Virus record (IMG/VR): IMGVR_UViG_3300042260_000361
Location: 1-55,622 of that record
DNA: 55,622 bases
Strand: one strand, 5' to 3'
Source: a virus
Taxonomy: Duplodnaviria > Caudoviricetes
Part shown: positions 2,015 to 40,746 of the stretch, piece by piece
Numbering within the stretch: position 1 is the first letter of the stretch
Layout: each line of letters begins with the position of its first letter
Notes under the pieces: generated by a model
Seen by the model: the letters and a program-made list of their open reading frames with translations, nothing else
Told to the model about the DNA's origin: nothing
Database searches by the model: none
Program-made: the position numbers and the translations under genes

Positions 2015-3592
2015 ATGGCTTCTTTAAAAGACATAATTAAATTAGAGTATTCTAAGTGTGCTTCGGATCCTATATACTTTATGAAAAAGTATTGTATGAT
2101 TCAACACCCGGTCCGCGGAAAAATTCCATTTCACTTATTTCCGTTTCAGGACAGAACCTTAGTAGAATTTAAAGACCATAGATATAACATTGTATTAAAA
2201 TCCCGACAAACAGGTATTTCTACTTTGGTTGCGGGATTTTCCCTTTGGAAGATGTTATTTAATCAAGATTACAACGTATTGGTAATTGCAACAAAACAAG
2301 AAGTTGCGAAAAACTTAATTACCAAAATTAGAGTAATGAATCAGTATCTACCAAGTTGGTTAAAACAAGATACGGTAGAAGATAATAAACTTTCACTTAG
2401 ATATGCAAATGGTTCTCAAGCAAAGGCAACTTCATCTTCTGGAGATGCAGGTCGTTCTGAAGCCTTATCTCTATTAGTATTTGACGAGGCTGCGTTTATC
2501 GATAATATTGAGGAAATTTGGATATCTGCACAATCTACGTTATCAACGGGTGGTAGTGCAATTATTCTTTCTACTCCAAATGGTGTGGGTAATTTCTTTC
2601 ACAGAACATGGGTAGGTGCAGAAGAAGGAACAAACGATTTCAATACAATTCGATTACACTGGTCAGTTCATCCAGAACGAGATCAAAGTTGGAGAGATGA
2701 ACAAGCAAGATTATTAGGACCAAAGGGTGCAGCACAAGAATGTGATTGTGACTTCGTAAGTTCCGGTGATACTGTCATCGATCCTGAATTACTTATGTTT
2801 TACAAAGAAACATATGTACAAGAACCAATTGAGAAGACTGGATGGGATTCTAACCTATGGAAATGGGAATATCCAAATTATAATAAAGGATATATGGTTG
2901 TTGCCGACGTTGCCCGTGGTGATGGTGGTGACTACTCTGCATGTCATGTCTTTGATATTGAAACTGCAACACAAGTAGCAGAATATAAAGGAAAAATGGA
3001 TACCAAAGATTTCGGTAATTTCTTAGTTGCATTGGCAACCGAATATAATGAAGCACTTTTAGTAATAGAGAACGCGAATATTGGTTGGGCAGTAATTCAA
3101 CAAGTAATTGATAGAGGATATCGTAATTTATTCTATATGAGTAAGGATTTAAAGTATGTAGATGTTCAACATCAACTACATAATAAATTCAGAGCAGAAG
3201 AAAGAGGTATGGTTGCAGGATTCTCTACTACATCTAAAACTCGTCCTTTGATTATTTCTAAATTAGAGGATTATGTTAGAGAAAAATCAGTTACAATTCG
3301 TTCATCGAGGTTAATAGAAGAACTATTTACATTTATATGGGTTGGTAATCGTGCAGAGGCAATGAGAGGGTATAATGATGACTTGGTGATGTCTTTAGGT
3401 ATTGGATTATGGGTTAGAGATACTGCACTTCGTTTAAGACAAGAGGGAGTTGATTTAACTAAAATGGCAATCGGTGGAATTCAACAACATTCATTCACAT
3501 TAGATGGGTTTGGTGGTAATTCATCATTAGATGAGAACCCTTGGAAAATGAGAGTTGGTGATAGAGATGAAGATTTATCACAATGGTTGTAA
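2015..3592 (+). CDS. terL: Terminase large subunit (T4 gp17-like)
   Basis: Walker A KSRQTGIST, Walker B LLVFDEAAF, coupling motif STPNG, nuclease motifs VVADVARG..DYS and NDDLVMS; upstream of the portal. Confidence 0.95.
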   Translation: MASLKDIIKLEYSKCASDPIYFMKKYCMIQHPVRGKIPFHLFPFQDRTLVEFKDHRYNIVLKSRQTGISTLVAGFSLWKMLFNQDYNVLVIATKQEVAKNLITKIRVMNQYLPSWLKQDTVEDNKLSLRYANGSQAKATSSSGDAGRSEALSLLVFDEAAFIDNIEEIWISAQSTLSTGGSAIILSTPNGVGNFFHRTWVGAEEGTNDFNTIRLHWSVHPERDQSWRDEQARLLGPKGAAQECDCDFVSSGDTVIDPELLMFYKETYVQEPIEKTGWDSNLWKWEYPNYNKGYMVVADVARGDGGDYSACHVFDIETATQVAEYKGKMDTKDFGNFLVALATEYNEALLVIENANIGWAVIQQVIDRGYRNLFYMSKDLKYVDVQHQLHNKFRAEERGMVAGFSTTSKTRPLIISKLEDYVREKSVTIRSSRLIEELFTFIWVGNRAEAMRGYNDDLVMSLGIGLWVRDTALRLRQEGVDLTKMAIGGIQQHSFTLDGFGGNSSLDENPWKMRVGDRDEDLSQWL

Positions 3593-3644: not shown

Positions 3645-4121
3645 ATGATAAAATTACAATCACTACTTAATGAAGAATCTCCATGTTGGAAAGGATATCA
3701 ACAAGTTGGCATGAAAGAAAAAGATGGAAAACAAGTTCCTAATTGTGTTCCAATATCAAATGAATCATATGAAGATGATTATGATGAATTAGATGTAGAA
3801 GATGATGATGAGGAAGACTTTTTAACTTATCTACAATCATATAAAAACGAATTAAAAGAAGCAAACTGCAATTGTGTAAATGAAGCAGAATATCAAGGTA
3901 GAGATGTTCAATTAGGCAAACCAATGGCAGGTGATGTTAAAAAATTCAAAGTATATGTAAAAAATCCACAAGGAAATGTTGTTAAAGTAAATTTCGGACA
4001 AAAAGGTGTTAAAATTAAAAAGAATAACCCTGAAAGAAGAAAATCATTCAGAGCAAGACATAATTGTGAATCACCAGGACCAAGACATAAGGCAAGATAC
4101 TGGTCATGTAGAAAGTGGTAA
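3645..4121 (+). CDS. Modular putative internal head protein (MIKLQSLLNE leader; PCWKGY...PNCVP module; C-terminal RKSFRARHNC...ARYWSC module)
   Basis: Start revised from 3555 to the ATG at 3645, which has GAGGA upstream and a late motif at 3616-3624; lies between terL and portal. Confidence 0.7.
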   Translation: MIKLQSLLNEESPCWKGYQQVGMKEKDGKQVPNCVPISNESYEDDYDELDVEDDDEEDFLTYLQSYKNELKEANCNCVNEAEYQGRDVQLGKPMAGDVKKFKVYVKNPQGNVVKVNFGQKGVKIKKNNPERRKSFRARHNCESPGPRHKARYWSCRKW

Positions 4122-4161
4122 AAAATAAATAATAAAGGTTATAAATTAAAACAGAAAACAA

Positions 4162-5895
4162 ATGGCGGATACTTCATTTTTCGGTAGATTAACTAAACTT
4201 TTCCAATCTAAGGCAGTTGTGACTGTTGATAAAGATGGTAAAAGAAAAGTTTTTGATGCAGATGAAAGACAGCAAACGAATTTATCATCATTAAGAGATA
4301 GATACACAAAAATTCAAAAATCCTTTTTTGAACAAGCAGGTGGTGCACAATCAATGGCATACCAACAAGTTCGTAGAGAAGTATTTAGAGATTATGATGC
4401 AATGGATTGTGATCCAATCTTAGCATCTGCATTAGATATTTACGCGGATGAATCTACATTAAAAAATGAATTTGGTGATATATTAACCGTTCGTTCCGAT
4501 AATCAAAAAGTACAAGAAGTATTAGATAACTTATTTTACGATATTCTTAACGTTGAATTTAACTTATGGCCATGGGTTCGTAATATGTGTAAGTATGGTG
4601 ATTTTTTCTTAGGTTTAGAGATTGCCGAAGGTAAAGGTATCGTAAATGTAACACCCCATTCAGTATATAACACAGAAAGATTAGAAGGACAAGACCCAAA
4701 TAATCCAAATGTAGTTAAATTTAAAGTAACTGAAGACCCGAATGGTAAAGTAGAATACGAAAACTTTGAAATTGCACACTTTCGTTTATTAGCAGATACA
4801 AACTGGTTACCATATGGTAAGTCAATGATTGAAAATGGTAGAAGATTGTGGAAACAATTGAGTTTAATGGAAGATGCAATGTTAATCCATAGAATCATGA
4901 GAGCACCTGAAAAAAGAGTGTTCAAAATTGATATAGGTAACATTCCACCAACTGAAGTAGATAACTATATGCAAAGAATTATCAACAAAATGAAGAAAGT
5001 TCCTTTCGTTGATAAAAATAGTGGTGATTACAACTTAAAATACAACATGCAGAACTTAACGGAAGATTTCTTCTTACCGGTTAGGGGAGGTGATAGTGGA
5101 ACATCAATTGAAAACCTTGCAGGATTAGATTATGCAGCAATTGATGATATTGAATACTTAAAAGCTAAATTATTTGCTGCTCTTAAAATTCCTAAAGCAT
5201 ATTTGGGATATGATGAGAATGTAAATGGTAAAGCAACACTTGCAGCGGAAGATGTTCGTTTTGCAAGAACAATTGAAAGAATCCAAAGGACAGTAGTTTC
5301 AGAATTAAGTAAAATAGCAATCGTGCATTTATACGCACAAGGTATTACTGATTCAGAAATGACTAACTTTGAATTGCAATTAGTTAATCCATCAACTATA
5401 TACGAACAAGAGAAAGTAAATCTTTGGTCAGAAAAAGTTAGATTAGCACAAGATATGCAAGGATTGAATATGTTAAGTAAAGATTGGATTTATGAAAATA
5501 TCTTCAAAATGGCACAAGGTGATCAAACTCGTGAAAGAGGTAAGATTATTGAAGATATTAAAGATAGATTCCGTTATAGTTCTATTGAAAATCAAGGTAA
5601 TGACCCTGCAGTGGAAAGCGAACCTAATGATGTTGAGGAAAGTTTAGAACAAATCAAAACTGAATTAGCAAATAAAGGTGGAAGGCCAAGAGAAGGTAAT
5701 ACCTATGGTAAAGATAAATCACCATTTGGAAGAGACCCATTAGGTGATAAGGAAAATAAAAATGCACTTAAACACAGAACATCTGAAGAAAGAGCATTAC
5801 AATATATCAATGGAATTGCTTCAAAACGTAAATATTTAGCAGAACAAAAAGGTATGTTAGATGAGACTAATATCATCGATGACACGCAAAATTAA
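4162..5895 (+). CDS. Portal protein (T4 gp20-like)
   Basis: MEDAMLIHRIMRAPEKRVFKIDIGN, EDFFLPVRGG, LFAALKIPK and EDVRFARTIERIQ match the gp20 family. Confidence 0.95.
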   Translation: MADTSFFGRLTKLFQSKAVVTVDKDGKRKVFDADERQQTNLSSLRDRYTKIQKSFFEQAGGAQSMAYQQVRREVFRDYDAMDCDPILASALDIYADESTLKNEFGDILTVRSDNQKVQEVLDNLFYDILNVEFNLWPWVRNMCKYGDFFLGLEIAEGKGIVNVTPHSVYNTERLEGQDPNNPNVVKFKVTEDPNGKVEYENFEIAHFRLLADTNWLPYGKSMIENGRRLWKQLSLMEDAMLIHRIMRAPEKRVFKIDIGNIPPTEVDNYMQRIINKMKKVPFVDKNSGDYNLKYNMQNLTEDFFLPVRGGDSGTSIENLAGLDYAAIDDIEYLKAKLFAALKIPKAYLGYDENVNGKATLAAEDVRFARTIERIQRTVVSELSKIAIVHLYAQGITDSEMTNFELQLVNPSTIYEQEKVNLWSEKVRLAQDMQGLNMLSKDWIYENIFKMAQGDQTRERGKIIEDIKDRFRYSSIENQGNDPAVESEPNDVEESLEQIKTELANKGGRPREGNTYGKDKSPFGRDPLGDKENKNALKHRTSEERALQYINGIASKRKYLAEQKGMLDETNIIDDTQN

Positions 5896-5962
5896 TCAAT
5901 CATAAAAAATTTTATATTTATAATAGAGTTTTTGAGTATATCAAAATAAGGATTTGAGTAAA

Positions 5963-6832
5963 ATGAAAAAAATAAAACATTCAAAATTTAAGAATACGGG
6001 TTTTCTTTTCGAACTATTAACCCGTCAGATAACTTTGGAAATTTTAAATAATTCTCCCGAGAAGGCAAAAAATATCGTATCCGAATTTTTTGGTAACGGA
6101 ACAGAATTGTCTAAAGAACTTCGTTTATTTAATTTATTAATAAATGAGAAGTATAATTCTGAAAATAAAGCAGAGAAATTTATCGATGCTATTTTAGATG
6201 CCAGAACAAAGTTAGATGAACAGAAATTGGCTAAACAAAAATATAGTTTAGTTAAATCGATTAAAGAAAATTTTGAAATAGATTCATTCTTAGCATCGCC
6301 AGTAACTAATTACAAAGTTCTTGCATCAATTCACAAATTATTTGAAGCAAAAGCAACAAATGTATTAGATGTAAAAGATGTATTTGATTCTAAACTTACA
6401 TTAGTAGAACATATATCAACTTCAACTCCATCTTTGAAACAAAAAGAAGATAGATTAGTTGAAGATTATAAGAAACAAGAAAAAGATTTAAGATTACTTA
6501 CTTATAAGATTCTTGTTGAAACTTTCAATAAAAAATATTCTAACTTAAATGATTCTCAAAAATTATTATTGAGAGAATATATCAACAACGTAACCAACAC
6601 TTCTAAATTTGGTGAGTATTATTCCAACGAATTGAAAAAAGTTGTAACCGAATTACATTCCATTTATACATCAATGGACGATACGATTACAAAAATTAAA
6701 TTAAAGGAAACTATTAATGTCTTAAAAAATCAAAAATTTGGTAAAAAAATTACCGATGAACAGGTTTCTGCATTAATGATGGGATTTGAACTTATAAAGG
6801 AAATACAGAATGTTAAGAAGCGAATCTCTTAA
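5963..6832 (+). CDS. Head-module hypothetical protein
   Basis: Helical, Lys-rich ORF right after the portal. ATG at 5963 preferred over TTG at 5954 (AAGGA about 10 nt upstream). Late motif at 5914-5922. Confidence 0.65.
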   Translation: MKKIKHSKFKNTGFLFELLTRQITLEILNNSPEKAKNIVSEFFGNGTELSKELRLFNLLINEKYNSENKAEKFIDAILDARTKLDEQKLAKQKYSLVKSIKENFEIDSFLASPVTNYKVLASIHKLFEAKATNVLDVKDVFDSKLTLVEHISTSTPSLKQKEDRLVEDYKKQEKDLRLLTYKILVETFNKKYSNLNDSQKLLLREYINNVTNTSKFGEYYSNELKKVVTELHSIYTSMDDTITKIKLKETINVLKNQKFGKKITDEQVSALMMGFELIKEIQNVKKRIS

Positions 6833-8228
6833 AAAATATATTGATGAAATCATTTCCGAAGTTGAAAAGGAATTAGATGAGGCAACTACAACCGGTGATA
6901 TTGCTGGTTATGAAACTCCTAATGCGTTTTCCGATGGTAGTGATGCAACAAAAAGACGTAAAAAGAAAATTGCAACTCAATTGGGTATGCAATTAGTTGG
7001 TAAGGTTGAATCAGTAAATGAAGCACACACTTCATTCGTATCAGGTAACTCTGGTAGAACTATAACTCATTTAGATAATAAAAAATATCAATTAACAAAA
7101 GATATAAAAGGTGCACAAATTGGAAACTATCATAGTGTAGTTTTACCAAAAGGAAGTATTATCACAAATCTTCCAGGCGGGGTATTTGCAAGTCATCCAT
7201 CTTTAAAGGATAGATTTTCTGGTATTAAAGAAACTCCAAACTTTGGTTTTAGAGTAACAACAAATCCAGATACCTTAATAGCAATTGAAAAATCTTCAAA
7301 AATATTAGAATCAGTAAATGAAATCATGATAACCGAAAAACAATTCAAAGGTTTAGAAGGTATTCCTGCAAATACATCATTAGAAAAAATTACTAAAGAC
7401 CAAAAATTAAAAATAATTAAAGGTGTTGGTAATATAATTGATTTTATTGTTCCAAAAGGATTAAGTAGAAACTTTTGGCAAGTTATTGGAACTGGTAAGA
7501 TAAAGAAAAACTTATCGGGTGAATACTATTTAGAAGGTAAGATAATCAGTTCACCGATGTTTAAATCTATTGATGATTTAATTGATGGTGTAAAATGGAA
7601 ATCTATGGAAGAAAGACGTAGATTTAACGAATCAGTAAATGAAGAATCTGAAGGTTTGTGGGCAAATATACGAGCTAAAAGAGCTAGAGGTGAAAAACCT
7701 GCACCTAAAAATTCAAAAGCATATAAAGATGCGGTAAAAGCAGGAAAAGAAATAAATAAAAACGAATCTGTTAATGAATATAACTTAAATGATATTATTA
7801 AACAGGTTAAAACTTATGATAACCCAAAAGATGAAAAACTTTTGACAATCAAAGTGATAAATAAACTTAAAGATAGTAGAAATAAATCAAACCCATCTAA
7901 AAAAATCGAAATTCAAAAAATCATCGATACTATTGAGGGTGATTACAAAAAAGGTAAGTATCTTAAATTAGAATCAGTAAATGAAAATCGTTGGTTAGAA
8001 TTGAAAAATGATAATTCTATGCATGCTAATAAAAAACTTGCAATAGGGTTAAAGGAGTTAAAATACCAATTATCTGAAGTTGAAACTTTTTTACGTTGGT
8101 ATAATCAAATCAAAACAATGAATGAATTAGATTCAAATCAATATTGGAAAAGAACAAATTCTCATATTTATAAGATAAAAGAACGAATAATCAATATAGC
8201 AAGAACATTGCAGGAGATAGAAAAATAA
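6810..8228 (+). CDS. Putative internal-head polyprotein with five ESVNE-delimited modules
   Basis: ESVNE at aa 67, 167, 274, 319 and 388; lies between the portal and the prohead protease. Confidence 0.7.
   Translation: MLRSESLKKYIDEIISEVEKELDEATTTGDIAGYETPNAFSDGSDATKRRKKKIATQLGMQLVGKVESVNEAHTSFVSGNSGRTITHLDNKKYQLTKDIKGAQIGNYHSVVLPKGSIITNLPGGVFASHPSLKDRFSGIKETPNFGFRVTTNPDTLIAIEKSSKILESVNEIMITEKQFKGLEGIPANTSLEKITKDQKLKIIKGVGNIIDFIVPKGLSRNFWQVIGTGKIKKNLSGEYYLEGKIISSPMFKSIDDLIDGVKWKSMEERRRFNESVNEESEGLWANIRAKRARGEKPAPKNSKAYKDAVKAGKEINKNESVNEYNLNDIIKQVKTYDNPKDEKLLTIKVINKLKDSRNKSNPSKKIEIQKIIDTIEGDYKKGKYLKLESVNENRWLELKNDNSMHANKKLAIGLKELKYQLSEVETFLRWYNQIKTMNELDSNQYWKRTNSHIYKIKERIINIARTLQEIEK
7008..7985 (+). 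repeat. Five in-frame 15-nt direct repeats GAATCAGTAAATGAA (ESVNE) separated by unrelated spacers of 285, 306, 120 and 192 nt
   Basis: Exact copies at 7008, 7308, 7629 and 7971; synonymous variant GAATCTGTTAATGAA at 7764. Confidence 0.95.
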
Positions 8229-8707
8229 TGAAAATCACAAAAGAACAATTTAAGAAAATCGTTAAAGAGGTTTTAACCGAAGAAAACGAATATCAAGCAT
8301 TCTTTCAAAAAGCGTTAGATAAAGCTGGAAAATCAATTCCATCTATGAGTGATGAGGAAAAGAAAGCATTCTTTGATAAAATCGATGCATCGTGGAATGG
8401 TAGAGGAGAAAAATCTGAAGCATTAGTTGGTGGTCAAAAAGAATTAGATGTGGATGGTGATGGTGATATCTCTGGCGATGATTTAGCAGATTTAAGAGCT
8501 GGTAAAAAAGCAGACGAATCGGTAATAAAAGAAGAAGAAGAGATTAAATGGAATGCAGTTGAAAACGCAATCATTAACTTTCTAAAAATGAACACAAAGA
8601 TTTTAGATAAAAGAGTTAAAGATAAAGACACTGCAGGCGTTAAGGGTGGGTTACAATCAATCATTGATGGTTTAACTAACGCACAACGTAGTTTAAAATT
8701 AAAATAA
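8228..8707 (+). CDS. Modular putative head/internal protein with an EF-hand-like loop (DVDGDGDISGDD)
   Basis: N-terminal ...VKEVLTE segment, DxDxDG loop, DESVIKE junction; GGAG upstream. Confidence 0.6.
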   Translation: MKITKEQFKKIVKEVLTEENEYQAFFQKALDKAGKSIPSMSDEEKKAFFDKIDASWNGRGEKSEALVGGQKELDVDGDGDISGDDLADLRAGKKADESVIKEEEEIKWNAVENAIINFLKMNTKILDKRVKDKDTAGVKGGLQSIIDGLTNAQRSLKLK

Positions 8708-8721
8708 TATAAAGGATAGAT

Positions 8722-9315
8722 ATGAAATCATTATTAATAGAAACTAACCTATTTGAAGGTAAGGTAAATGAGGATGAAGGTGGGAGAACTCTTGTAAAGG
8801 GTATCCTACAACGTGCTGGTGCCGAAAATCAAAATGGTAGAGTATATCCTATGGAAATTCTAAGAAGAGAAGCTCAAAAATACGAGCAACTTATTAAAGA
8901 ACGTAGAGCGTTGGGAGAATTAGACCATCCAGATTCATCTGTAATCAATTTAAAGAACGTTTCTCATAACATTAAGGAAATCCATTGGGAAGGTAATGAT
9001 TTGTGTGGGACAGTTGAAATACTACCAACTCCATCGGGTAATATCTTAAAAGAATTATTAAGAGCGGGAATCCTTTTAGGAATTTCTTCTCGAGGTATGG
9101 GTTCAGTATCACCAATGGGTGAAGGTAAAGTAAAAGTAGGTGAAGATTTTGAATTAATTGGTTGGGATTTTGTTTCTAACCCATCTACACATGGTGCATT
9201 TATGACACCATTACAAGAATCCGTAAATAAACAAATACAAGAACAAGCAGTAGTATGTGGTGATTTCTGTAAGGCACAAGACCTTATGAGAGAAATTATT
9301 ACTGAATTAGCATAA
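8722..9315 (+). CDS. Prohead core protease (T4 gp21-like)
   Basis: NQNGRVYP, ALGELDHP, GISSRGMGS and DFVSNPSTHGA motifs. Confidence 0.95.
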   Translation: MKSLLIETNLFEGKVNEDEGGRTLVKGILQRAGAENQNGRVYPMEILRREAQKYEQLIKERRALGELDHPDSSVINLKNVSHNIKEIHWEGNDLCGTVEILPTPSGNILKELLRAGILLGISSRGMGSVSPMGEGKVKVGEDFELIGWDFVSNPSTHGAFMTPLQESVNKQIQEQAVVCGDFCKAQDLMREIITELA

Positions 9316-9326
9316 GGAATACAACT

Positions 9327-9761
9327 ATGGCATTCTCAATACAAGATTATTTAGAACATAACAAAATCGAATTAGGTAAAATCACTAAAGAAGTTGGTGA
9401 TACTCCATATAAAGGTGGTCATAACGATATTCGTAAAACAAATTACGATGTTAAGATTAAAGAAGATGGTAAGTTAGATTTATATACTCATAAGACAGTA
9501 TTAACTGAATCTACATTAAACGAAGCATCAGAAATTAAAATAAATGAATTAGATTCTACTAAACAAAAACAAGTTCAAGCATTTGTAAAGTTTTTTGGTG
9601 GTAAAGTTATTACAATTTGGGATGGTATTCATGGTAATATCGTTGATATTAAAATGTCTGAATCAAATTGGAGAATGGATACACAAGATTTAAAAGACTT
9701 AATTTCATTGAAAATTAGATGGATAGAATTTGATAAACAAACGGTCTCAATCGGATTTTAA
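9327..9761 (+). CDS. Putative two-module head/internal protein
   Basis: Central LTESTLNE junction; located in the head cluster; AAGGA upstream. Confidence 0.55.
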   Translation: MAFSIQDYLEHNKIELGKITKEVGDTPYKGGHNDIRKTNYDVKIKEDGKLDLYTHKTVLTESTLNEASEIKINELDSTKQKQVQAFVKFFGGKVITIWDGIHGNIVDIKMSESNWRMDTQDLKDLISLKIRWIEFDKQTVSIGF

Positions 9762-9779
9762 AATATAGGAATAATAAAG

Positions 9780-10994
9780 ATGATTAAATTACAACAATTA
9801 CTTAACGAAGAAACTTTTACTGCTACTAATAAAGCAACAGGTAAAACATCGGTTTTCAAATCAAAAGATAGTAGAGATGCTGCAATTAAAGCAGGAACTC
9901 ATGATGAGAAAAAAGATGCCCCAACTGATAAAGGTAATGCAACAAAAGGAAATAAAACCCCAAAAGTAAATATCTTTGATAAACCATCAAAATCAGAACC
10001 AAAATCAGACACACCTAAAGCAACTCCTGCTGATTTAGCAGTTGATAAAGTTGTTTACAATACAAGAACAAAGACAGTTGGTATTGTAAGAATTGCAGAT
10101 GAAAGAGGTGAAACTAAAACTGATGCAGATGGTAATGTAAATTCATCTGAATTAGAACCATACAACCCAATGAAGTATCCACATCAAAAAGATGCTAAAG
10201 TTGCACCATCTACACAAAAAGAAGTAGATAGTAGAGGTTTATGGAATCCATTTGCACAAGATAAAGAAACATCTAAGGAAGAACCTAAATCAGAACCTAA
10301 ACAAAGAAAAGGTGTTCCTGCAGTAAATAAAGCAGTTAGACAACAAGCTCAAAAATTAGGAATTACTCCTGAAAAATTGGGTAAAGATGAATATTTGAAG
10401 AAAATGGCTCAAGCAGCAGTTTCTGCACTTACTGATTCAAACTTCCATCCTGAAGCAAGACAATTAGTTGCTGATTTAGAAGGTAAACCAGAAATGGCAG
10501 AGAAACCTGATTACCCATCAATGAAAGACCCAAAATATAAAGAAAAGATGGATGCTATAAGAGCTAAATACGATTCTGTATATAATACACCTGATAAAGA
10601 TGCAGATGAATTGGGAACTTCGGCATCACAATCTGCTGAGTGGAGTGGTGATACTGCAATCGATGCAATTGCATTTGATTTAAGAATGAACGGATTCCAC
10701 AAAATGGCAGATAAGATACAATCAGTAATCAAAGAAGGTAAAGTTAATAGAACTTCACTTATGAGAATACTGAATGAATCGGAAGCAGAAGAAATTGCCA
10801 ATTTAACTGGATTAAGAACTCAAGCTGTTAAGAAATTTATTGATGATAATAATATTGATGATAGAAAGTTATTAGCATATCTTAAAATAAAAGGACCTAA
10901 GACTTTAAGTAATAGAATGGATATGGCAACTGCAATTGTTGGTAAACCAGGAAACAAATATAGTCAAGGAATCATTAAAGCATTTAGTAAATAG
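9780..10994 (+). CDS. Modular putative internal head protein (MIKLQQLLNE leader)
   Basis: Same leader as the genes at 3645 and 11003; Lys/Pro-rich linkers; IKE and ILNE junctions near the C-terminus. Confidence 0.6.
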   Translation: MIKLQQLLNEETFTATNKATGKTSVFKSKDSRDAAIKAGTHDEKKDAPTDKGNATKGNKTPKVNIFDKPSKSEPKSDTPKATPADLAVDKVVYNTRTKTVGIVRIADERGETKTDADGNVNSSELEPYNPMKYPHQKDAKVAPSTQKEVDSRGLWNPFAQDKETSKEEPKSEPKQRKGVPAVNKAVRQQAQKLGITPEKLGKDEYLKKMAQAAVSALTDSNFHPEARQLVADLEGKPEMAEKPDYPSMKDPKYKEKMDAIRAKYDSVYNTPDKDADELGTSASQSAEWSGDTAIDAIAFDLRMNGFHKMADKIQSVIKEGKVNRTSLMRILNESEAEEIANLTGLRTQAVKKFIDDNNIDDRKLLAYLKIKGPKTLSNRMDMATAIVGKPGNKYSQGIIKAFSK

Positions 10995-11002
10995 GAGAAT
11001 AG

Positions 11003-11467
11003 ATGATTAAATTATCACAAATATTAAAAGAAGGTGAAGAAAGACAACAAAGTCAAATGTCATCTGAATTAAAGAAACATTTTTTAGAAATCGTATCTAC
11101 ATACAACAAGTATCAAGAACAGATGGATAGAAAATCGGATTTAGCAACTATCGCCGAAACATTGGGTGGTATAACTGAAGCAGCCAGAGCACTTGCATTA
11201 AATGAAGGTGATGATTGGTTTGATAAAGTAACCATCAAACGTAATATGAATGAGTTGGAGAAACTTGGTAAAGAATTTGATAAGTGTGCTTCAGAAGCAA
11301 ACTCGTTAGACCAACGTATGGGTGGATTATATGAAGATATGGGACACATTCTTTCTCGTTACTACAAATTAGGTGAAATATCCGAAGAACAAATGAAAAC
11401 AAGATTAGGTATCACAAACGAATCAGTAAAAACATCTAAAGGATGTGATATTTGTGATAAAAAATAA
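11003..11467 (+). CDS. Head-module helical protein (MIKLSQILKE leader)
   Basis: Leader motif, AGGAG upstream, C-terminal TNESVK. Confidence 0.6.
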   Translation: MIKLSQILKEGEERQQSQMSSELKKHFLEIVSTYNKYQEQMDRKSDLATIAETLGGITEAARALALNEGDDWFDKVTIKRNMNELEKLGKEFDKCASEANSLDQRMGGLYEDMGHILSRYYKLGEISEEQMKTRLGITNESVKTSKGCDICDKK

Positions 11468-11512
11468 TTTATATATATTTATACAAAGTTACAAACAATT
11501 TAAATTAAATTA

Positions 11513-11776
11513 ATGAGCGGAATATCAAGATGCACAGTCGAAGTTCGTAATGGTGACATTACAAAGGCTTTGAAAATCTTTAAAAAGAAAGTTATGGAAA
11601 GTGGTCATCTCTTAGAATTAAGAGAACGTAAAGAATACGTTAAACCAACTACTAAACGAAGATTGGTTAAACAGAAGGCAGTAAGAGAAGAACAAAAGAG
11701 AGTTATTCTTGAGAAAATAGCCGATGGTGACCAAAAATTACGTTTTTATACAAAAAAACGTAAGAAAAAGGAATAA
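11513..11776 (+). CDS. rpsU: Phage-encoded 30S ribosomal protein bS21
   Basis: VEVRNGDITKALKIFKKKV..SG.L.ELRERKEYVKPTTKRR fits the bS21 signature; own late motif at 11475-11483. Confidence 0.9.
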   Translation: MSGISRCTVEVRNGDITKALKIFKKKVMESGHLLELRERKEYVKPTTKRRLVKQKAVREEQKRVILEKIADGDQKLRFYTKKRKKKE

Positions 11777-11837
11777 AAATGTAAAATTTATAGAAAAATA
11801 TAGTTTTTTTATAAGTTGTATATATTTATTATCAATT

Positions 11838-11861
11838 AACTCACACTCAATGTGAGTTTTT
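11838..11861 (+). promoter_or_regulatory. Hairpin AACTCACA-CTCAA-TGTGAGTT with short T-tract in the scaffold gene leader
   Basis: Perfect 8-bp inverted repeat just downstream of ATATTTATT at 11822-11830. It could be a terminator or a 5' leader structure. Confidence 0.5.
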
Positions 11862-11981
11862 ATATTAAGTTGGTTAATGAATACCCTTCTATATAAGGTG
11901 TGACCGAACAACCGACCTAACTTTAATCTATATTGGAATTCTCCTAATAATTTCACAGAACAAACACAAGGAAGGTAAAAA

Positions 11982-13034
11982 ATGGCAAATTCAAAATTGT
12001 TAAAAGAAGCAATTGCTGATGCTAAGGCCGTTAGAGAAACTGCAATCGCTAATGCAAAAATCGCATTAGAAGAAGCTTTTACTCCAAGATTACAATCTAT
12101 CTTATCTAAAAAACTTCAATCAGAGATGGAAGGTGAAGAAGAAGAAGCAGATGTAAACGAAGAGTATGGTGTTGAAGACACATCAGATGCTGATTCATCA
12201 GCAATTGGTGATGGTGACAACAAACAACCTGCAGATGACGCTAATGACTCATCAGACATTGCACAATCAAACCCGGATACAGACGTAGAAACTGCAGAAA
12301 CAGGCGAAGAAGATGAAAACATCGAAGTAGTTGCTGAAGCAGAAGAAGACGAAGTTCCAGGAGAAACTCAATCTCGTATCGAAGAAGAAGACGAAGACGA
12401 ATTGGATTTAGAATCAATCATCAGAGAATTGGAAGATGAATTAGGTGGTGAAGAACCAACTGAAGAAGAACCATCTCAAGAAGAATCAGTTTACGAAGAA
12501 GAAGAATCTGAAGAAGCATCAGAAGAACCAGCAGTTGAAGAAGCTGAAGGTGAAGATGAAGAAATCGATTTAGATGAAATCTTACGTGAAATGGGATACG
12601 GAGATGATGAAGAAGCAGTTGAAGAAGGTGAAGAAGAAGCAGATGCAGCTATGGCAGCAAAAGATGCTGAATTGGAAGAAGCTTACAACGTAATCAAATC
12701 TCTAAAATCAACAATCAACGAAGTTAATTTGTTAAATGCAAAATTATTGTACACAAACAAATTATTCCGTTCATACGATTTGACTAATGAGCAAAAACAC
12801 AAAGTTGTTGAAACTTTAGACAGAACTCAAAACGTTAGAGAAGTAAAATTAGTGTTCTCTACTTTGGCAGAATCAATGAAAATTGGTGGAACTGCTAAAA
12901 AAGTAAAAGCACAAACAAAATTAACTGAATCATTTGCTTCTAAGCAAGTTGCTTCAACTGCACCAAAAAGAGAAATCATCGCAGAAAGCAATCAATTAGC
13001 AGACAGATTCAAGCAATTAGCAAATATTAAATAA
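11982..13034 (+). CDS. Prohead scaffolding/core protein (T4 gp22-like position)
   Basis: Very acidic central region with helical ends; immediately upstream of the major capsid gene. Confidence 0.8.
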   Translation: MANSKLLKEAIADAKAVRETAIANAKIALEEAFTPRLQSILSKKLQSEMEGEEEEADVNEEYGVEDTSDADSSAIGDGDNKQPADDANDSSDIAQSNPDTDVETAETGEEDENIEVVAEAEEDEVPGETQSRIEEEDEDELDLESIIRELEDELGGEEPTEEEPSQEESVYEEEESEEASEEPAVEEAEGEDEEIDLDEILREMGYGDDEEAVEEGEEEADAAMAAKDAELEEAYNVIKSLKSTINEVNLLNAKLLYTNKLFRSYDLTNEQKHKVVETLDRTQNVREVKLVFSTLAESMKIGGTAKKVKAQTKLTESFASKQVASTAPKREIIAESNQLADRFKQLANIK

Positions 13035-13060
13035 CAAAACAAACATTAGGAGAAAATAAA

Positions 13061-14689
13061 ATGGCAAATTTCGATTTATCAAAACTAATGGAAGGAAAGA
13101 ACCCACAACAAGTAATGTTGGCTGAAACACGTCAATTACAATCTAAGTGGGAAAAAACTGGACTTCTTGAAGGTTTAAAAAGCAGAGAGCAATCTCAAAT
13201 TGCAGTTCTTTTAGAGAACCAAGCAAAACAATTATTGGATGAAGCAACAGCAACAGGTACTTCTGCAGGTTCAGAAGAGTGGTCTGGTGTAGCACTTCCA
13301 TTAGTAAGACGTATTTTTGGTGAAATCGCAGCGAAAGAATTCGTTTCGGTTCAACCAATGAACTTACCATCAGGTCTAATATTCTTTTTAGATTTTAAAT
13401 ATGGAACAGCACAACCGGGTAACCCATCATACGCTGGAAAATCTTTATTCGGTGGTAACGGAACTTCTGCAGCTAATTCTGACTTCGGTAGAACTAAAGC
13501 AGCAGTAAATGGTCTTTATGGTGAAGGTCGTTTCGGATATTCAATCAACGATCAATCAGTAGCAGTAGCAGCAGGTAACCAATCATTTGCAACTGCATCT
13601 TGGTCAGATGTTGGATTCGATTCAGCATTATCTGCATCAATCGCAGCTTCACAAATCGCTAAGATTTCAGTATCAAAAGCAAACGTATCTGCAGTTTCTG
13701 ACGTAGATGCAGTTCGTTCATTCTACATCTCATCTTCAGTATTCGCAGCAGCAGATTCATTCTACCCAGCGTATTCTCAATTTGATGGTGCAAACTACAC
13801 ATTCTTCGCTAAAGTTGCTAACATTTCTTCAGGTTCAAACTCAACTACTTTGACAGTTAAGTATTCTGAGCAACCTGCAGCTTATGATAGAGGTGATTTC
13901 GAAGATGGTAACCCAACAGAACCGGCTACTGATTTAGGTATCCCAGAAGTTGATTTAGAATTGAAATCAGAGGCTATCGTTGCTAAGACTCGTAAGTTGA
14001 AAGCAGTGTGGACTCCAGAATTGGCTCAAGATTTAAATGCTTACCACTCAATTGATGCTGAAGCAGAATTAACATCTATGTTATCTGAATATATCTCATT
14101 AGAGATTGACTTAGAAATCTTAGATATGTTAAAAGCTAACGCTTTAACAACTGAATATTGGTCAGTAACTTTAGGTGAAGAGTATAATTCAGCAACAGGT
14201 GCATGGTTAGCAGGAACAAACTCTGCAGCATACACTAAAAACACATGGTTCCAGACTTTAGGTGCTAAAATCAACAAAGTATCTAACAAGATTCACCAAT
14301 TAACATTACGTGGTGGTGCTAACTTCATCGTAGCTTCTCCAGACGTATGTACGGTATTGGAATCTATTCCTGGATTCGTAGTAAACGCAGATAAAGATGC
14401 AATGTCATTCGCAGCTGGTGTAACAGCAGTTGGTTCTATGGCAAATCGTTATACGGTTTACAAAAACCCTTATATGACATCTAACGAAATCTTATTAGGT
14501 TTCAAAGGTTCAAACTTCTTGGAGACTGGAGCAGTTTACGCACCATACGTTCCATTGATTATGACACCATTAGTGTACGATCCAACTAACTTCACGCCAA
14601 GACGTGGTGTTATGACTCGTTACGCTAAGAAGATGGTAAGACCAGAATTCTATGGTAAGATTTATGTTAAAGATTTAGCTAATATCTAA
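13061..14689 (+). CDS. Major capsid protein (T4 gp23-like)
   Basis: LLENQ, VSVQPMNLPSGLIF, AKTRKLKAVWTPELAQDLNAYH, YAPYVPL and GVMTRYA motifs. Confidence 0.97.
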   Translation: MANFDLSKLMEGKNPQQVMLAETRQLQSKWEKTGLLEGLKSREQSQIAVLLENQAKQLLDEATATGTSAGSEEWSGVALPLVRRIFGEIAAKEFVSVQPMNLPSGLIFFLDFKYGTAQPGNPSYAGKSLFGGNGTSAANSDFGRTKAAVNGLYGEGRFGYSINDQSVAVAAGNQSFATASWSDVGFDSALSASIAASQIAKISVSKANVSAVSDVDAVRSFYISSSVFAAADSFYPAYSQFDGANYTFFAKVANISSGSNSTTLTVKYSEQPAAYDRGDFEDGNPTEPATDLGIPEVDLELKSEAIVAKTRKLKAVWTPELAQDLNAYHSIDAEAELTSMLSEYISLEIDLEILDMLKANALTTEYWSVTLGEEYNSATGAWLAGTNSAAYTKNTWFQTLGAKINKVSNKIHQLTLRGGANFIVASPDVCTVLESIPGFVVNADKDAMSFAAGVTAVGSMANRYTVYKNPYMTSNEILLGFKGSNFLETGAVYAPYVPLIMTPLVYDPTNFTPRRGVMTRYAKKMVRPEFYGKIYVKDLANI

Positions 14690-35895: not shown

Positions 35896-37155
35896 ATGGC
35901 AACATTAACATCAGGACAAACATTAAGTTTAAATGCATTGGCTTCTGCAACGGGTCAAACAGCAAAATCATTATCTGCAGCAAAAGGTAATACAACCGGC
36001 CCAATCGCAATGTCATCATTCGCAATTGATTCAGTTGGTTCAATCACTGGTTATACTTACGCAGTAGAAGGAACATCTGAAGCATATACATTAGGATTTA
36101 ATGGAGCTGGTGGTAATTTTAGTAGAATCAGTAGTAGACCAGGAAACTTTACTTGGAGTGTAGCAGCAGGTTCTTATATTTCATTAACTACAAATAGTGG
36201 TGCATCTGCAACATTTACGGTAGGGACAATGAATCCTCAAGGTGCAGGTTCACAGACATCCTTAATGGGAGTTCAAACTCATACACTTCGTGCAAAGTTT
36301 GCAGATTCATTTAATGATCACGCAACTAATTACAATACTAATATAGATAAGACAGTTTATTCCGTAGATTCATATGATGGAAACTCAACTGCACTTTGTT
36401 TAACGATTGATTCTCCTGTTTTATTAGCAGATGGAACAATTGTAGAAGCAGGTGATTTGAATGAAGGTGATGTATTAAAAGGATTCTCAATCGGTGGATT
36501 GGGAACGGATTCTGATTCAACATTCTTAGATTGGTCATCATCTGATTTATCAAAAACTGAAAAAGATGTAACAATCGTTGGATTAACATATTCATTTGCA
36601 TCTCGTTACTATAACATTAATAATGGTGAAGTTACTGCAACTGCAGAACACCCTATGTTGGTAAAAGATTCAGTTAGTGGTGATTATTCATTTAAAGAAA
36701 TGTTTAACTTAGTAGTTGGTGATAAATTAATCAAAGGTGATGGTAGCGAAGTTAACATCACATCAATTAGTATTGTTGAAAAAACAACTGAAATTGTTTC
36801 AATTGATGTTGAATCTGAAGATACTTATATGGTTAATGGATACATTACTCACAACAAAGGTGGTAATACATTCACAGATTTAGCATCACCGGGTGCACCA
36901 ACATCATTAGCATATGCATCACCATTCGTAAACTGGGTTGCACCATCTTCGGTTGGAACAACTGGTATTACTGCATATGATGTTCAAATAGATAACAATT
37001 CTGATTTCAGTTCTCTTGCATATGATTATTCTGAATGGAGTTCTACATCAATCGAAGTTAATACATTATTAACTGCAGGAACATGGTATATTAGAGTTAG
37101 AGCAATTGATCAAGGATTAAAAGGAACGTGGGCAACTTTAACATTTACTAGATAA
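35896..37155 (+). CDS. Putative virion protein with a central Hint (intein-like) domain and a C-terminal FN3-like domain
   Basis: CLTIDSPVLLADG (block A), TATAEHP (block B), YMVNGYITHN (terminal block); then W.APS....Y.VQ...WYIRVRA. Confidence 0.8.
   Translation: MATLTSGQTLSLNALASATGQTAKSLSAAKGNTTGPIAMSSFAIDSVGSITGYTYAVEGTSEAYTLGFNGAGGNFSRISSRPGNFTWSVAAGSYISLTTNSGASATFTVGTMNPQGAGSQTSLMGVQTHTLRAKFADSFNDHATNYNTNIDKTVYSVDSYDGNSTALCLTIDSPVLLADGTIVEAGDLNEGDVLKGFSIGGLGTDSDSTFLDWSSSDLSKTEKDVTIVGLTYSFASRYYNINNGEVTATAEHPMLVKDSVSGDYSFKEMFNLVVGDKLIKGDGSEVNITSISIVEKTTEIVSIDVESEDTYMVNGYITHNKGGNTFTDLASPGAPTSLAYASPFVNWVAPSSVGTTGITAYDVQIDNNSDFSSLAYDYSEWSSTSIEVNTLLTAGTWYIRVRAIDQGLKGTWATLTFTR
36397..36855 (+). 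other. Hint domain, 153 aa, Cys1 to His-Asn, followed by Lys
   Basis: TGT at 36397, CAC AAC at 36850-36855, next codon AAA; no endonuclease insert. Confidence 0.85.
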
Positions 37156-39996: not shown

Positions 39997-40746
39997 ATGA
40001 CACATTATGTATATAAAATAATTGATAAAACTACAAACGAATATTATTTTGGGAGTCGTTCATGTAATTGTTTAGCAAAAGATGATGTGTATATGGGATC
40101 TATGAAAGTATGGAAACCAAAATCTGATAATCTTATTAAAGAAATACTAAATGACACATTTTCAGATAGAATTTCTGCAATGGAATATGAAAGTAATATT
40201 ATTAAATTACATATTAAAGATTCACTCAATCAAAATTATCATATACCGACAAGTGGATTTCATACTAATGGTAGAAAACAATCTGAATTAGAAAGAACCA
40301 ACCGAAGTAATCATAGAATACAATATGAATTATCAAAAGGTAGTAATAATGCAATGTATAATAAATCACATTCATTGGATAGTATTAAAAAAATGAAAAC
40401 CCAAGCAAAAAATAGATATACTAAAAAATGGTTTATTGAAAAATATGGAGAACAAATTGGTATTCAAAAATACAATGAAAAAGGGAAACTACAAAGTAAT
40501 AAATTAAAAAGTGTTGGCAATCCAATGTTTGGTAAATCACACACACCCACCTCTAAAATAAAAATGAGCGAATCTAAACAAAAAAAAGTGGGTAAATATA
40601 ATATTAAAAACGAAATTATTCATATTTATAGCAGTATAACTGAAGCAGCATCTAAAAACAACATTAGTATAAGTGCAATCAGTTTAGTATGTGATCCAAC
40701 TCGTATTAACAAAACTGCAGGTGGGTTTATATGGAAATTTATTTAA
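39997..40746 (+). CDS. Free-standing GIY-YIG (Seg-like) homing endonuclease with NUMOD3- and NUMOD1-like DNA-binding motifs
   Basis: YVYKI......YYFGSR..Y.GS; NAMYNKSHS and NPMFGKSHT; C-terminal YSSITEAA...ISLVC...KTAGGFIWK. Confidence 0.85.
   Translation: MTHYVYKIIDKTTNEYYFGSRSCNCLAKDDVYMGSMKVWKPKSDNLIKEILNDTFSDRISAMEYESNIIKLHIKDSLNQNYHIPTSGFHTNGRKQSELERTNRSNHRIQYELSKGSNNAMYNKSHSLDSIKKMKTQAKNRYTKKWFIEKYGEQIGIQKYNEKGKLQSNKLKSVGNPMFGKSHTPTSKIKMSESKQKKVGKYNIKNEIIHIYSSITEAASKNNISISAISLVCDPTRINKTAGGFIWKFI

Follow-up and report, generated by a model that had tools for sequence, protein, structure and literature searches.

A shared ten-residue leader and glutamate-ended linkers in the head genes of an uncultured phage, read as probable T4-type propeptides

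We describe here the head module of the IMG/VR virus record IMGVR_UViG_3300042260_000361, in which a ten-residue leader, M-I-K-L-x-x-[LI]-L-x-E, heads otherwise unrelated gene products and a five-residue linker, E-S-[VI]-N-E, recurs inside a further one, both of them probably signals for a T4-type prohead protease. The window, by which we mean the whole 55,622-nucleotide stretch analysed, is a complete viral record of 55.6 kb, A/T-rich with a G+C content of 0.28-0.38, and nearly all of its genes lie on the + strand. Its head module runs in the order terminase, portal, core proteins, gp21-type serine protease, scaffold and gp23-type capsid protein (Table 1), the same order in which portal, small core proteins, protease, scaffold and capsid stand in the T4 series 20-67-68-21-22-23, and the best explanation is that the window represents part of an uncultured, T4-like myophage. 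With T4 gp21 the protease shares 34% identity (BLASTP E 3e-26), and it matches the solved T4 protease PDB 5jbl at E 8.6e-19. The phage collection held no close cultured relative: megablast returned only a 2% stretch in the capsid gene, from Flavobacterium phage immuto, and the isolates with the most similar proteases are Microcystis phage Mel-JY01 (62% identity) and immuto (55%). A viral-contig collection gave at least 599 matching stretches, of which the best 80 (L001-L080, protease identity 81-99%) were used as relatives.

The leader begins exactly three genes of the window, those at 3645, 9780 and 11003. A preliminary description of this DNA had pointed out these starts, MIKLQSLLNE, MIKLQQLLNE and MIKLSQILKE, in otherwise unrelated genes, and on both counts it was right, as the strings lie in the sequence at these positions and the three products, once the leader is removed, show no mutual BLAST match better than E 0.6. 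A six-frame scan of the window with M.KL..[LIVM][LIVM].E yielded three matches, all three at gene starts and all within the 13 genes that span 3645 to the capsid gene. The back-translated DNA pattern likewise matched three times, against a mean of 0.00 in 100 dinucleotide-preserving shuffles, none of which reached three, and among 55 called genes two pairs have at least six of nine N-terminal residues in common, a result reached in 1 of 2000 column shuffles. The upstream DNA of the three genes is dissimilar, and the likeness starts at the ATG. For gene 3645 the start is the ATG at 3645 and not an upstream TTG, because a TTG start would overlap the terminase gene, GAGGA lies upstream of the ATG and the orthologues begin MIKL. 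Secretion signal peptides of the Sec, Tat or lipoprotein type have a basic start followed by a hydrophobic core of roughly seven or more residues. The leader was rejected as such a signal, being ten residues long, polar at positions 3, 5, 6, 9 and 10, and of a mean hydrophobicity of 0.05-0.12.

In the 80 related contigs and the window, the relaxed motif M.K[LIVM]..[LIVM][LIVM].E matched 58 times, always on the coding strand; 52 of these matches lie at gene starts and the remaining six in open reading frames of 12-31 residues. At least seven protein families in the relatives are headed by the leader, including those of genes 9780, 3645 and 11003 and families with DUF5872-like and DUF5661 domains. 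To avoid circularity, orthologue N-termini were picked by BLAST to the bodies of the three proteins without use of the motif, which gave 33 distinct sequences: 21 with Glu10, eight of the nine-residue form MKLTxL[LIM]KE, three of a longer form MIKLGGL.TLKP..E and one miscalled start. Among the 21 with Glu10, position 2 is invariably Ile, Lys3 is found in 18 and Leu4 in 19, position 7 is Leu (14) or Ile (7), position 8 is Leu in 19 and position 9 mostly Asn (11) or Lys (8), with positions 5 and 6 free. The codons at positions 7 and 8 are TTA, CTT, CTA, TTG, CTG, ATA, ATT and ATC, and this multitude of synonymous and conservative codons indicates that the leader is conserved as a peptide and not as DNA. 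Gene 9780 has 1188 homologous protein clusters at E <= 1e-5 in a large protein collection, all unnamed. Among the best 120 of these homologues, 33 carry the strict leader, 47 the relaxed one and three the strict one at an internal Met, 15 begin MIQL..L[LI][NK]E and 16 are of the MANISLK type (MANISLK.., MANITLK.., MVNISLK.., MASIKLK..), with a hydrophobic pair before E-A; the six outside all forms comprise four that seem N-terminally truncated, one long MIKLGGL and one with a different start. The leader-like forms thus keep a hydrophobic pair and x-Glu, mostly Glu-Ala in the MANISLK type, just before the conserved body. Longer relatives were scanned as well, with a reversed-pattern control that gave zero in every record, with rough gene calls for the relaxed motif and with L010 and L014 outside the search. 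A near-identical relative of 91 kb has three strict matches, in the same three genes, and a relative of 123 kb has one strict match, in the head module, and four relaxed ones, three in the head module and one starting an enzyme of 1803 residues just upstream. The leader clusters in the head module without being restricted to it.

Three further starts in the module, MKSLLIE of the protease, MANSKLLKE of the scaffold and MANFDLSKLME of the capsid protein, had been taken as looser versions of the leader. They are present but do not repeat the tag, and correspond instead to the known processing sites of T4 gp21, gp22 and gp23. The protease start MKSLLIE/T (a slash marks a known or predicted cut) matches MNEPQLLIE/T of T4 gp21, and in the BLASTP alignment the predicted capsid site L-D-E61/A62 falls on L-T-E65/A66 of T4 gp23.

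The second element is most conspicuous in gene 6810-8228, whose product contains five exact copies of ESVNE, a string found in none of the other 55 gene products of the window; all pieces between the linkers are basic (isoelectric point, pI, 9.4-9.7). The related contigs provide 125 distinct contexts of ES[VI]NE, each of 25 residues; what precedes the motif varies, and what follows it is Ala 59 times, Gly 24 times, Asp 10 times and Glu 7 times. The linker is conserved also as DNA: four of the five window copies (7008-7985) are identical, GAATCAGTAAATGAA, the modal 15-mer is found at 64 of 108 distinct sites in the relatives against 4.3% expected from codon usage, and its Val codon is GTA in 97% of cases, compared to 47% overall. 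Throughout the gene-6810 family a conserved acidic N-propeptide always ends in [KQT]-E-L-[DE]-E, followed by A-T-T-T-G, an end that resembles the capsid site LLDE/ATATG. The N-terminal module of the family has 70 matches and the C-terminal one 77, and the middle modules are rare, with 1-6 matches each; where they recur they follow ESVNE, ESISE, ESIKE or ESINE, with one of the six matches to the module m2 following EDLNE instead.

Other junctions of this type are scattered over the module. At 8516, ESVIKE is a diverged counterpart of ES[VI]NE; 8 of 12 distinct relatives have the canonical form at this point, and the modules that come after it differ among them. The protease domain closes with ESVNK at 9217, a conserved end behind which lies a tail that is conserved as well; [NQK]-E-S-[VIA], or more fully [MLV]-[NQK]-E-S-V, stands there in all 45 of the distinct C-termini shown, and the site lies within three or four residues of ..KEITE/S of T4 gp21. 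NESVK, with its ESVK at 11420, ends the conserved core of the gene-11003 product, where most relatives have [LIM]-x-E-S and then different modules, and LTESTLNE/A at 9507-9524 is a conserved [LI]-[NK]-E/A joint between a module of about 60 residues and a variable second one. ESVYE at 12483 was rejected as a junction and is best taken as chance, since ESV is found there in none of 20 relatives and the sequence is acidic and of low complexity. The preliminary description had listed these four ESV strings and LTESTLNE of gene 9327 as junctions; all are present, and apart from the chance case at 12483 they lie at conserved borders. The description missed the strongest case, the five ESVNE copies of gene 6810-8228.

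The two elements meet in a small module with the pattern SPCWKGY..G.QVPNCVP, which sets in one or two residues behind the leader of gene 3645, and at the same distance behind ESVNE in two relatives (L027 and L079); the comparison comprised 12 pairs, in which four leader-bearing proteins are involved. Since this module stands behind both, its border is marked by the last Glu of the leader in one case and by that of the linker in the other. This common border is the best internal evidence that leader and linker would be read by one process, and the preference for Ala or Gly after ESVNE points to the second Glu of the linker as the putative cut site.

Table 1. Positions of the genes, leaders, linkers and candidate sites discussed in the text (window coordinates; a slash marks a predicted cut; strand where noted)
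Feature	Position	Description	Support
Large terminase	2015-3592		Pfam PF03237; PHROGs agrees
Leader-bearing gene	3645-4121 (+)	158 residues; leader, small Cys-Trp-Lys-Gly-Tyr module, acidic stretch (net -13), CVNE/A, basic C-terminal domain (pI 10.6)	weak DUF5754 match of C-terminal domain, below Pfam cut-off
Leader MIKLQSLLNE	3645..3674 (+)	start of gene 3645-4121	orthologues begin MIKL.. or MISM..LLNE
Candidate site CVNE/A	3873-3884	in gene 3645-4121	
gp20-type portal	4162-5895		Pfam PF07230, E 1.1e-68; PHROGs agrees
Polyprotein-like head protein	6810-8228 (+)	472 residues; acidic N-propeptide	
Propeptide end ELDE/A	6870-6881	in gene 6810-8228	
ESVNE linkers	7008-7022, 7308-7322, 7629-7643, 7764-7778, 7971-7985	in gene 6810-8228	
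Head protein	8228-8707 (+)	159 residues	
ESVIKE	8516-8533	in gene 8228-8707	
Prohead protease, gp21/S77 family	8722-9315 (+)		Pfam PF03420, E 4.6e-27, 95.2 bits against a cut-off of 27
Protease N-terminal site LLIE/T	8731-8742		conserved in relatives
Protease C-terminal site ..LQE/SVNK	9217-9231	followed by conserved tail	conserved in relatives
Two-module protein	9327-9761 (+)	144 residues; conserved module of about 60 residues and a second one	
Joint ..LTESTLNE/A	9507-9524	between the two modules	
Leader-bearing basic protein	9780-10994 (+)	404 residues, pI 9.2	
Leader MIKLQQLLNE	9780..9809 (+)	start of gene 9780-10994	
Candidate site RILNE/S	10764-10778	in gene 9780-10994	
Leader-bearing protein	11003-11467 (+)	154 residues; highly conserved helical core	
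Leader MIKLSQILKE	11003..11032 (+)	start of gene 11003-11467	
NESVK	11417-11431	ends core of gene-11003 product	
Ribosomal protein S21 gene	11513-11776	inside head module, same strand as structural genes	Pfam
Acidic scaffold-like protein	11982-13034 (+)	net charge -69; directly upstream of capsid gene, as gp22 in T4	
Scaffold site LLKE/A	11997-12008		nearly invariant in relatives
Scaffold island DLESIIRELE	12405-12434		
Scaffold island EILRE	12576-12590		
Major capsid protein, gp23 family	13061-14689 (+)		Pfam PF07068, E 4.4e-77
Predicted capsid maturation site LLDE/A	13232-13243		invariant in 15 distinct relatives

We propose a model in which leader and linkers are T4-type propeptides cut after [LIV]-x-Glu, the leader serving as a capsid-targeting tag and ES[VI]NE linking the modules of polyproteins, a reading we regard as probable from the sequence comparison. 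The locus holds a protease of the gp21/S77 family, a leader of about ten residues that ends in L/I-x-Glu, carriers unrelated to each other, and conservation at leader positions 4, 7, 8 and 10. These four positions are the ones that matter in the capsid-targeting sequence (CTS) of the T4 internal protein IPIII and may, by analogy, play the same role here. According to Kuhn and Thomas (PMC9026906), T4 gp21 cuts after Glu in L/I-X-E, and T4 internal proteins carry N-terminal propeptides of 10-19 residues that direct them into the core; in IPIII the first ten residues are enough for targeting, residues 4 and 7 mainly governing this step and residues 8 and 10 processing. What the preliminary description had stated of T4, a CTS of about ten residues that gp21 removes after Glu, agrees with that text (PMC9026906), and its interpretation of MIKLxxLLxE as a packaging tag is probably right in kind, given the protease family, positions 4, 7, 8 and 10 and the unrelated carriers; it went astray in details, namely in the looser starts, the site at 12483 and the estimate of about six genes with processed cargo, in place of which about nine head-module genes have conserved candidate sites.

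In such a system the proteins of the prohead core would be made with removable signals, and three kinds of site can be made out in the sequence. The first comprises counterparts of the classical T4 sites, LLIE/T and the C-terminal ..NE/S of the protease, LLKE/A of the scaffold and LLDE/A of the capsid protein. The second is the ten-residue leader, M-I-K-L-x-x-[LI]-L-[NK]-E, which on unrelated proteins would work like the T4 CTS, and the third the internal linker E-S-[VI]-N-E followed by Ala or Gly, which would string modules into polyproteins. Leader-bearing proteins would bind the assembling scaffolding core via the hydrophobic face of the leader (positions 4 and 7) and be enclosed by the shell. 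After shell closure the protease would cut after Glu in [L/I/V]-x-E, leader positions 8 and 10 (L-x-E) making up the cut site; cutting would free the mature proteins, degrade the scaffold and trim the capsid protein and the protease itself, and polyproteins cut at ES[VI]NE would give small, mostly basic internal proteins that stay with the DNA.

Several observations weigh against this model. The complete relative of 252 kb (G001) has no match to the strict motif, which thereby fails as a genome-wide marker, and its two relaxed matches, at 133 and 209.8 kb, both lie outside the head module, within which it carries a variant, MIKLTDLLEAE. Neither Mel-JY01 nor immuto has a MIKL leader. The residue after the leader is Glu or Asp in 17 of the 21 orthologue N-termini with Glu10, in contrast to the Ala or Gly after ESVNE, and the protease tail ..NE/SVNK together with ..IFE/SVN.., which T4 gp22 contains (NC_000866), suggests that cutting at the first Glu of the linker can occur as well. 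For the leader the hydrophobic moment is 0.34-0.46, a value reached by 25.5% of shuffles, and the argument from an amphipathic helix was dropped for this reason. The product of gene 11003 contains a helical core of high conservation and resembles a component of the prohead core more than accessory cargo; it may be an essential core protein. Finally, the related contigs are kin, so that counts of distinct contexts are not counts of independent events.

Of the other ways to account for leader and linkers, the one that fares best takes them as protease cut sites only, the leader being a removable cap that plays no part in targeting, with entry into the prohead via other parts of the proteins, such as folded domains, the N-module of about 60 residues known from gene 9327 or the conserved ends of the gene-6810 product. 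Polyproteins of relatives that start with other modules, such as DUF3008, without MIKL fit this account, as does the core of the gene-11003 product, in front of which some phages have MIKL and many others the module of about 60 residues, and a gp21-type site would need only the last three residues of the leader (PMC9026906). However, positions 2-4 and 7 are as strongly conserved as the cut site, which a bare site would not require, and in the same source the T4 equivalents of positions 4 and 7 are targeting determinants (PMC9026906). We consider a role in cutting alone unlikely.

Very unlikely, in our judgement, is that the leader is retained in the mature protein as a short N-terminal helix that binds DNA, a partner or a membrane. 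An AlphaFold2 model of the gene-11003 family, of low confidence (mean pLDDT 57.3, pTM 0.33), does place residues 5-11 in a short helix apart from the body, but the leader without exception ends in a sequence that fits the cutting rule of the protease family found in this phage, it and the ESVNE linker can replace each other in position, and with ten residues and its low mean hydrophobicity it makes no membrane anchor or signal peptide.

The conservation of ESVNE as DNA and the different modules on either side of the joints would also be expected if leader and linkers were recombination joints for the swapping of modules and their peptide similarity a by-product. As a full explanation this strikes us as highly improbable: the leader varies freely among synonymous codons at positions 7 and 8 and has no conservation upstream, and neither the preference for Ala or Gly after the linker nor the match to the gp21 rule is explained. 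Joint and peptide roles can coexist, though, and the linker may double as a recombination joint. An extended form of the propeptide model would have a plug-and-play loading system for one pool of small basic modules, in which ten-residue tag, carrier domain of about 60 residues and insertion as a bead between the conserved ends of a core polyprotein are interchangeable and ESVNE, as protease site and recombination joint in one, reshuffles kits of injected effectors between phages; we put this forward tentatively, as a possible but doubtful extension. That the shared start reflects selection for efficient translation initiation through A/T-rich early codons in strongly expressed late genes, the peptide having no role, is hardly credible, for although its codons ATG ATT AAA TTA are A/T-rich and the commonest for their residues and a Shine-Dalgarno-like site lies upstream in 29 of 44 leader genes, the leader is missing from the most abundant virion proteins (capsid MANF.., sheath MAEK.., tube MAEV..), positions 7, 8 and 10 are conserved as amino acids across many codons, all three window matches and most of those in relatives, the two relaxed ones of G001 excepted, fall within the head module, and the leader stops at a module border marked elsewhere by ESVNE.

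Within the families concerned, many relatives of the gene-9327 product stop after the first module and others have the [LI]-[NK]-E/A joint, and many relatives have such an N-module fused ahead of the core of the gene-11003 product, where it replaces the MIKL leader. This module of about 60 residues starts M..(N)FD[IL]..[YL][LMV]..NK, for example MSKFDLEKYLKENK (L073:7599-8183), and resembles the capsid start MANFDLSKLMEGKN (13061-13100); it may act as another type of carrier, or its likeness to the capsid start may be due to chance. The hypervariable acidic middle of the scaffold contains two invariant islands, DLE[SA]II[RK]ELE and IDLxEIL[RK]EMGYG (12405-12434 and 12576-12600), which are candidate protease or binding sites. 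For the candidate cargo, Pfam gave only DUF5754 (weak), DUF5872, DUF5661 and DUF3008, PHROGs only families of unknown function, and an Atlas search only unnamed viral clusters at a score of 0.89, below the level counted as more than a lead; genes 9780 and 3645 have no sequence relatives in the PDB. The literature found to name the four DUFs deals with algal viruses.

Some observations lie at the margin of the subject. An open reading frame at 2-586, cut off by the window edge, corresponds to the C-terminus of a homologue (73% identity) of a protein of 1803 residues, L103:2379-7787, which has cytidylyltransferase-like and poly(A)-polymerase-head domains and whose N-terminus MNKLSQFLVE fits the relaxed leader; this enzyme may be loaded into the capsid, or the match may be by chance. 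In immuto (L082) three genes near the head module, at 960-2260 and 8570-8797, begin MADNFNLRSFLTENKL, MENFDLKKFLVENKL and MENNFDIHKWQAKFLKE. This cultured phage may have a shared leader of its own and would then offer a possible experimental system. No cultured phage with the MIKL leader was found; tblastn with the gene-11003 product returned two records at 34-35% identity. Outside the head module, genes 23118, 26909, 31134 and 34040 are large, Ser/Gly-rich and fibre-like and begin MAQIIKHRRG, MAAILQLRRG, MAQIIRLKRS and MAQVVKLKRT, a shared N-terminus that is probably a common attachment domain. By eye, the 419-residue product of 35896-37155 contains a stretch resembling what we take to be a Hint/intein-type domain (C..., ending ..THN), and the gene of 249 residues at 39997-40746, between sheath-like and tube-like genes, presumably starts like a GIY-YIG homing endonuclease.

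Chen et al. have described S21-encoding phages, predicted to infect Bacteroidetes, to which the present phage bears a resemblance (PMC9723584). In the window the S21 gene lies on the same strand as the structural genes, in those phages on the opposite one, according to the accessible text (PMC9723584), in which, supplements being outside the search, the words "propeptide", "cleavage", "leader" and "internal protein" do not occur. No description of the present leader or of the ESVNE linker was found in the literature, supplements and most subscription journals lying outside the search; for cleavage motifs in cyanophages and T4-like phages and for CTS-like sequences only work on T4 and giant phages was found, and the papers listed for "ESVNE" are not about phages.

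If the proposed model is true, the T4 rule of an address tag that is removed by the head protease reaches beyond T4 and its close relatives, and an old, conserved way of loading the capsid exists in very common uncultured water phages, as the number of gene-9780 clusters illustrates. Sequence alone would then mark which unnamed phage proteins are likely packed and delivered into the host, and exact mature N-termini could be predicted, which would be testable by metaproteomics. In addition, a portable tag of ten residues could help to bring foreign proteins into capsids, an application for which T4 provides a precedent (PMC9026906).

The closest known system is the CTS of T4 IPI, IPII and IPIII together with the gp24 propeptide, the likeness being a ten-residue N-terminal peptide on unrelated proteins. 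In the T4 record NC_000866, ipII and ipIII start MKTYQEFIAE/A, gp24 MAKINELLRE/S, gp21 MNEPQLLIE/T and gp67 MEGLIE/A, and gp21 is noted for LIE at position 9 and a processed C-terminus (PMC9026906). The window leader MIKLQQLLNE/E has the same length as the IPII/IPIII tag and the gp24 propeptide and agrees with them in hydrophobic residues at positions 4, 7 and 8 and in Glu10; with the gp24 propeptide it has 6 of 10 residues in common. It differs from the T4 CTS in sequence (MIKLxxLLxE compared to MKTYQEFIAE), in the mostly acidic residue after the predicted cut, and in the location of its genes, which lie inside the head module here, whereas T4 ipII and ipIII lie about 35 kb from the head genes. 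The lineage, too, is another one, uncultured, aquatic, equipped with a ribosomal protein S21 gene and known here from sequence alone.

A second likeness is to gp22, gp67 and gp68, proteins of the T4 prohead core that gp21 breaks up into a number of pieces; they, too, have several L/I-x-E sites and genes between portal, protease and capsid. In contrast to these, a fixed five-residue ES[VI]NE, conserved as DNA, joins unrelated basic modules here, and the modules are swapped. To our knowledge, T4 has no such bead-on-string arrangement of linkers. In phiKZ and SPN3US, both giant phages, many head proteins, among them inner-body and ejection proteins, are cut by a diverged homologue of gp21 after a Glu that follows a short motif, and propeptides with multiple sites occur (PMC9026906); phage group and motif are different there, and the accessible part of that source describes no shared short N-terminal tag. 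Finally, the T4 internal proteins are called "related basic proteins" (PMC9026906), basic like the pieces that cutting at the linkers would release here, with only the targeting sequence conserved among diverse ones (PMC3012670), and in T-even phages the loci for variable internal proteins encode a diverse and weakly conserved set of products behind a common, conserved targeting leader, which has been read as a way of loading changing proteins (PMC9026906). Those loci belong to close relatives of T4, whereas here a distant lineage, with its protease at 34% identity, is concerned, and polyprotein linkers are added. The principle is thus known T4 biology, and what is new is its breadth and testable detail, not the mechanism.

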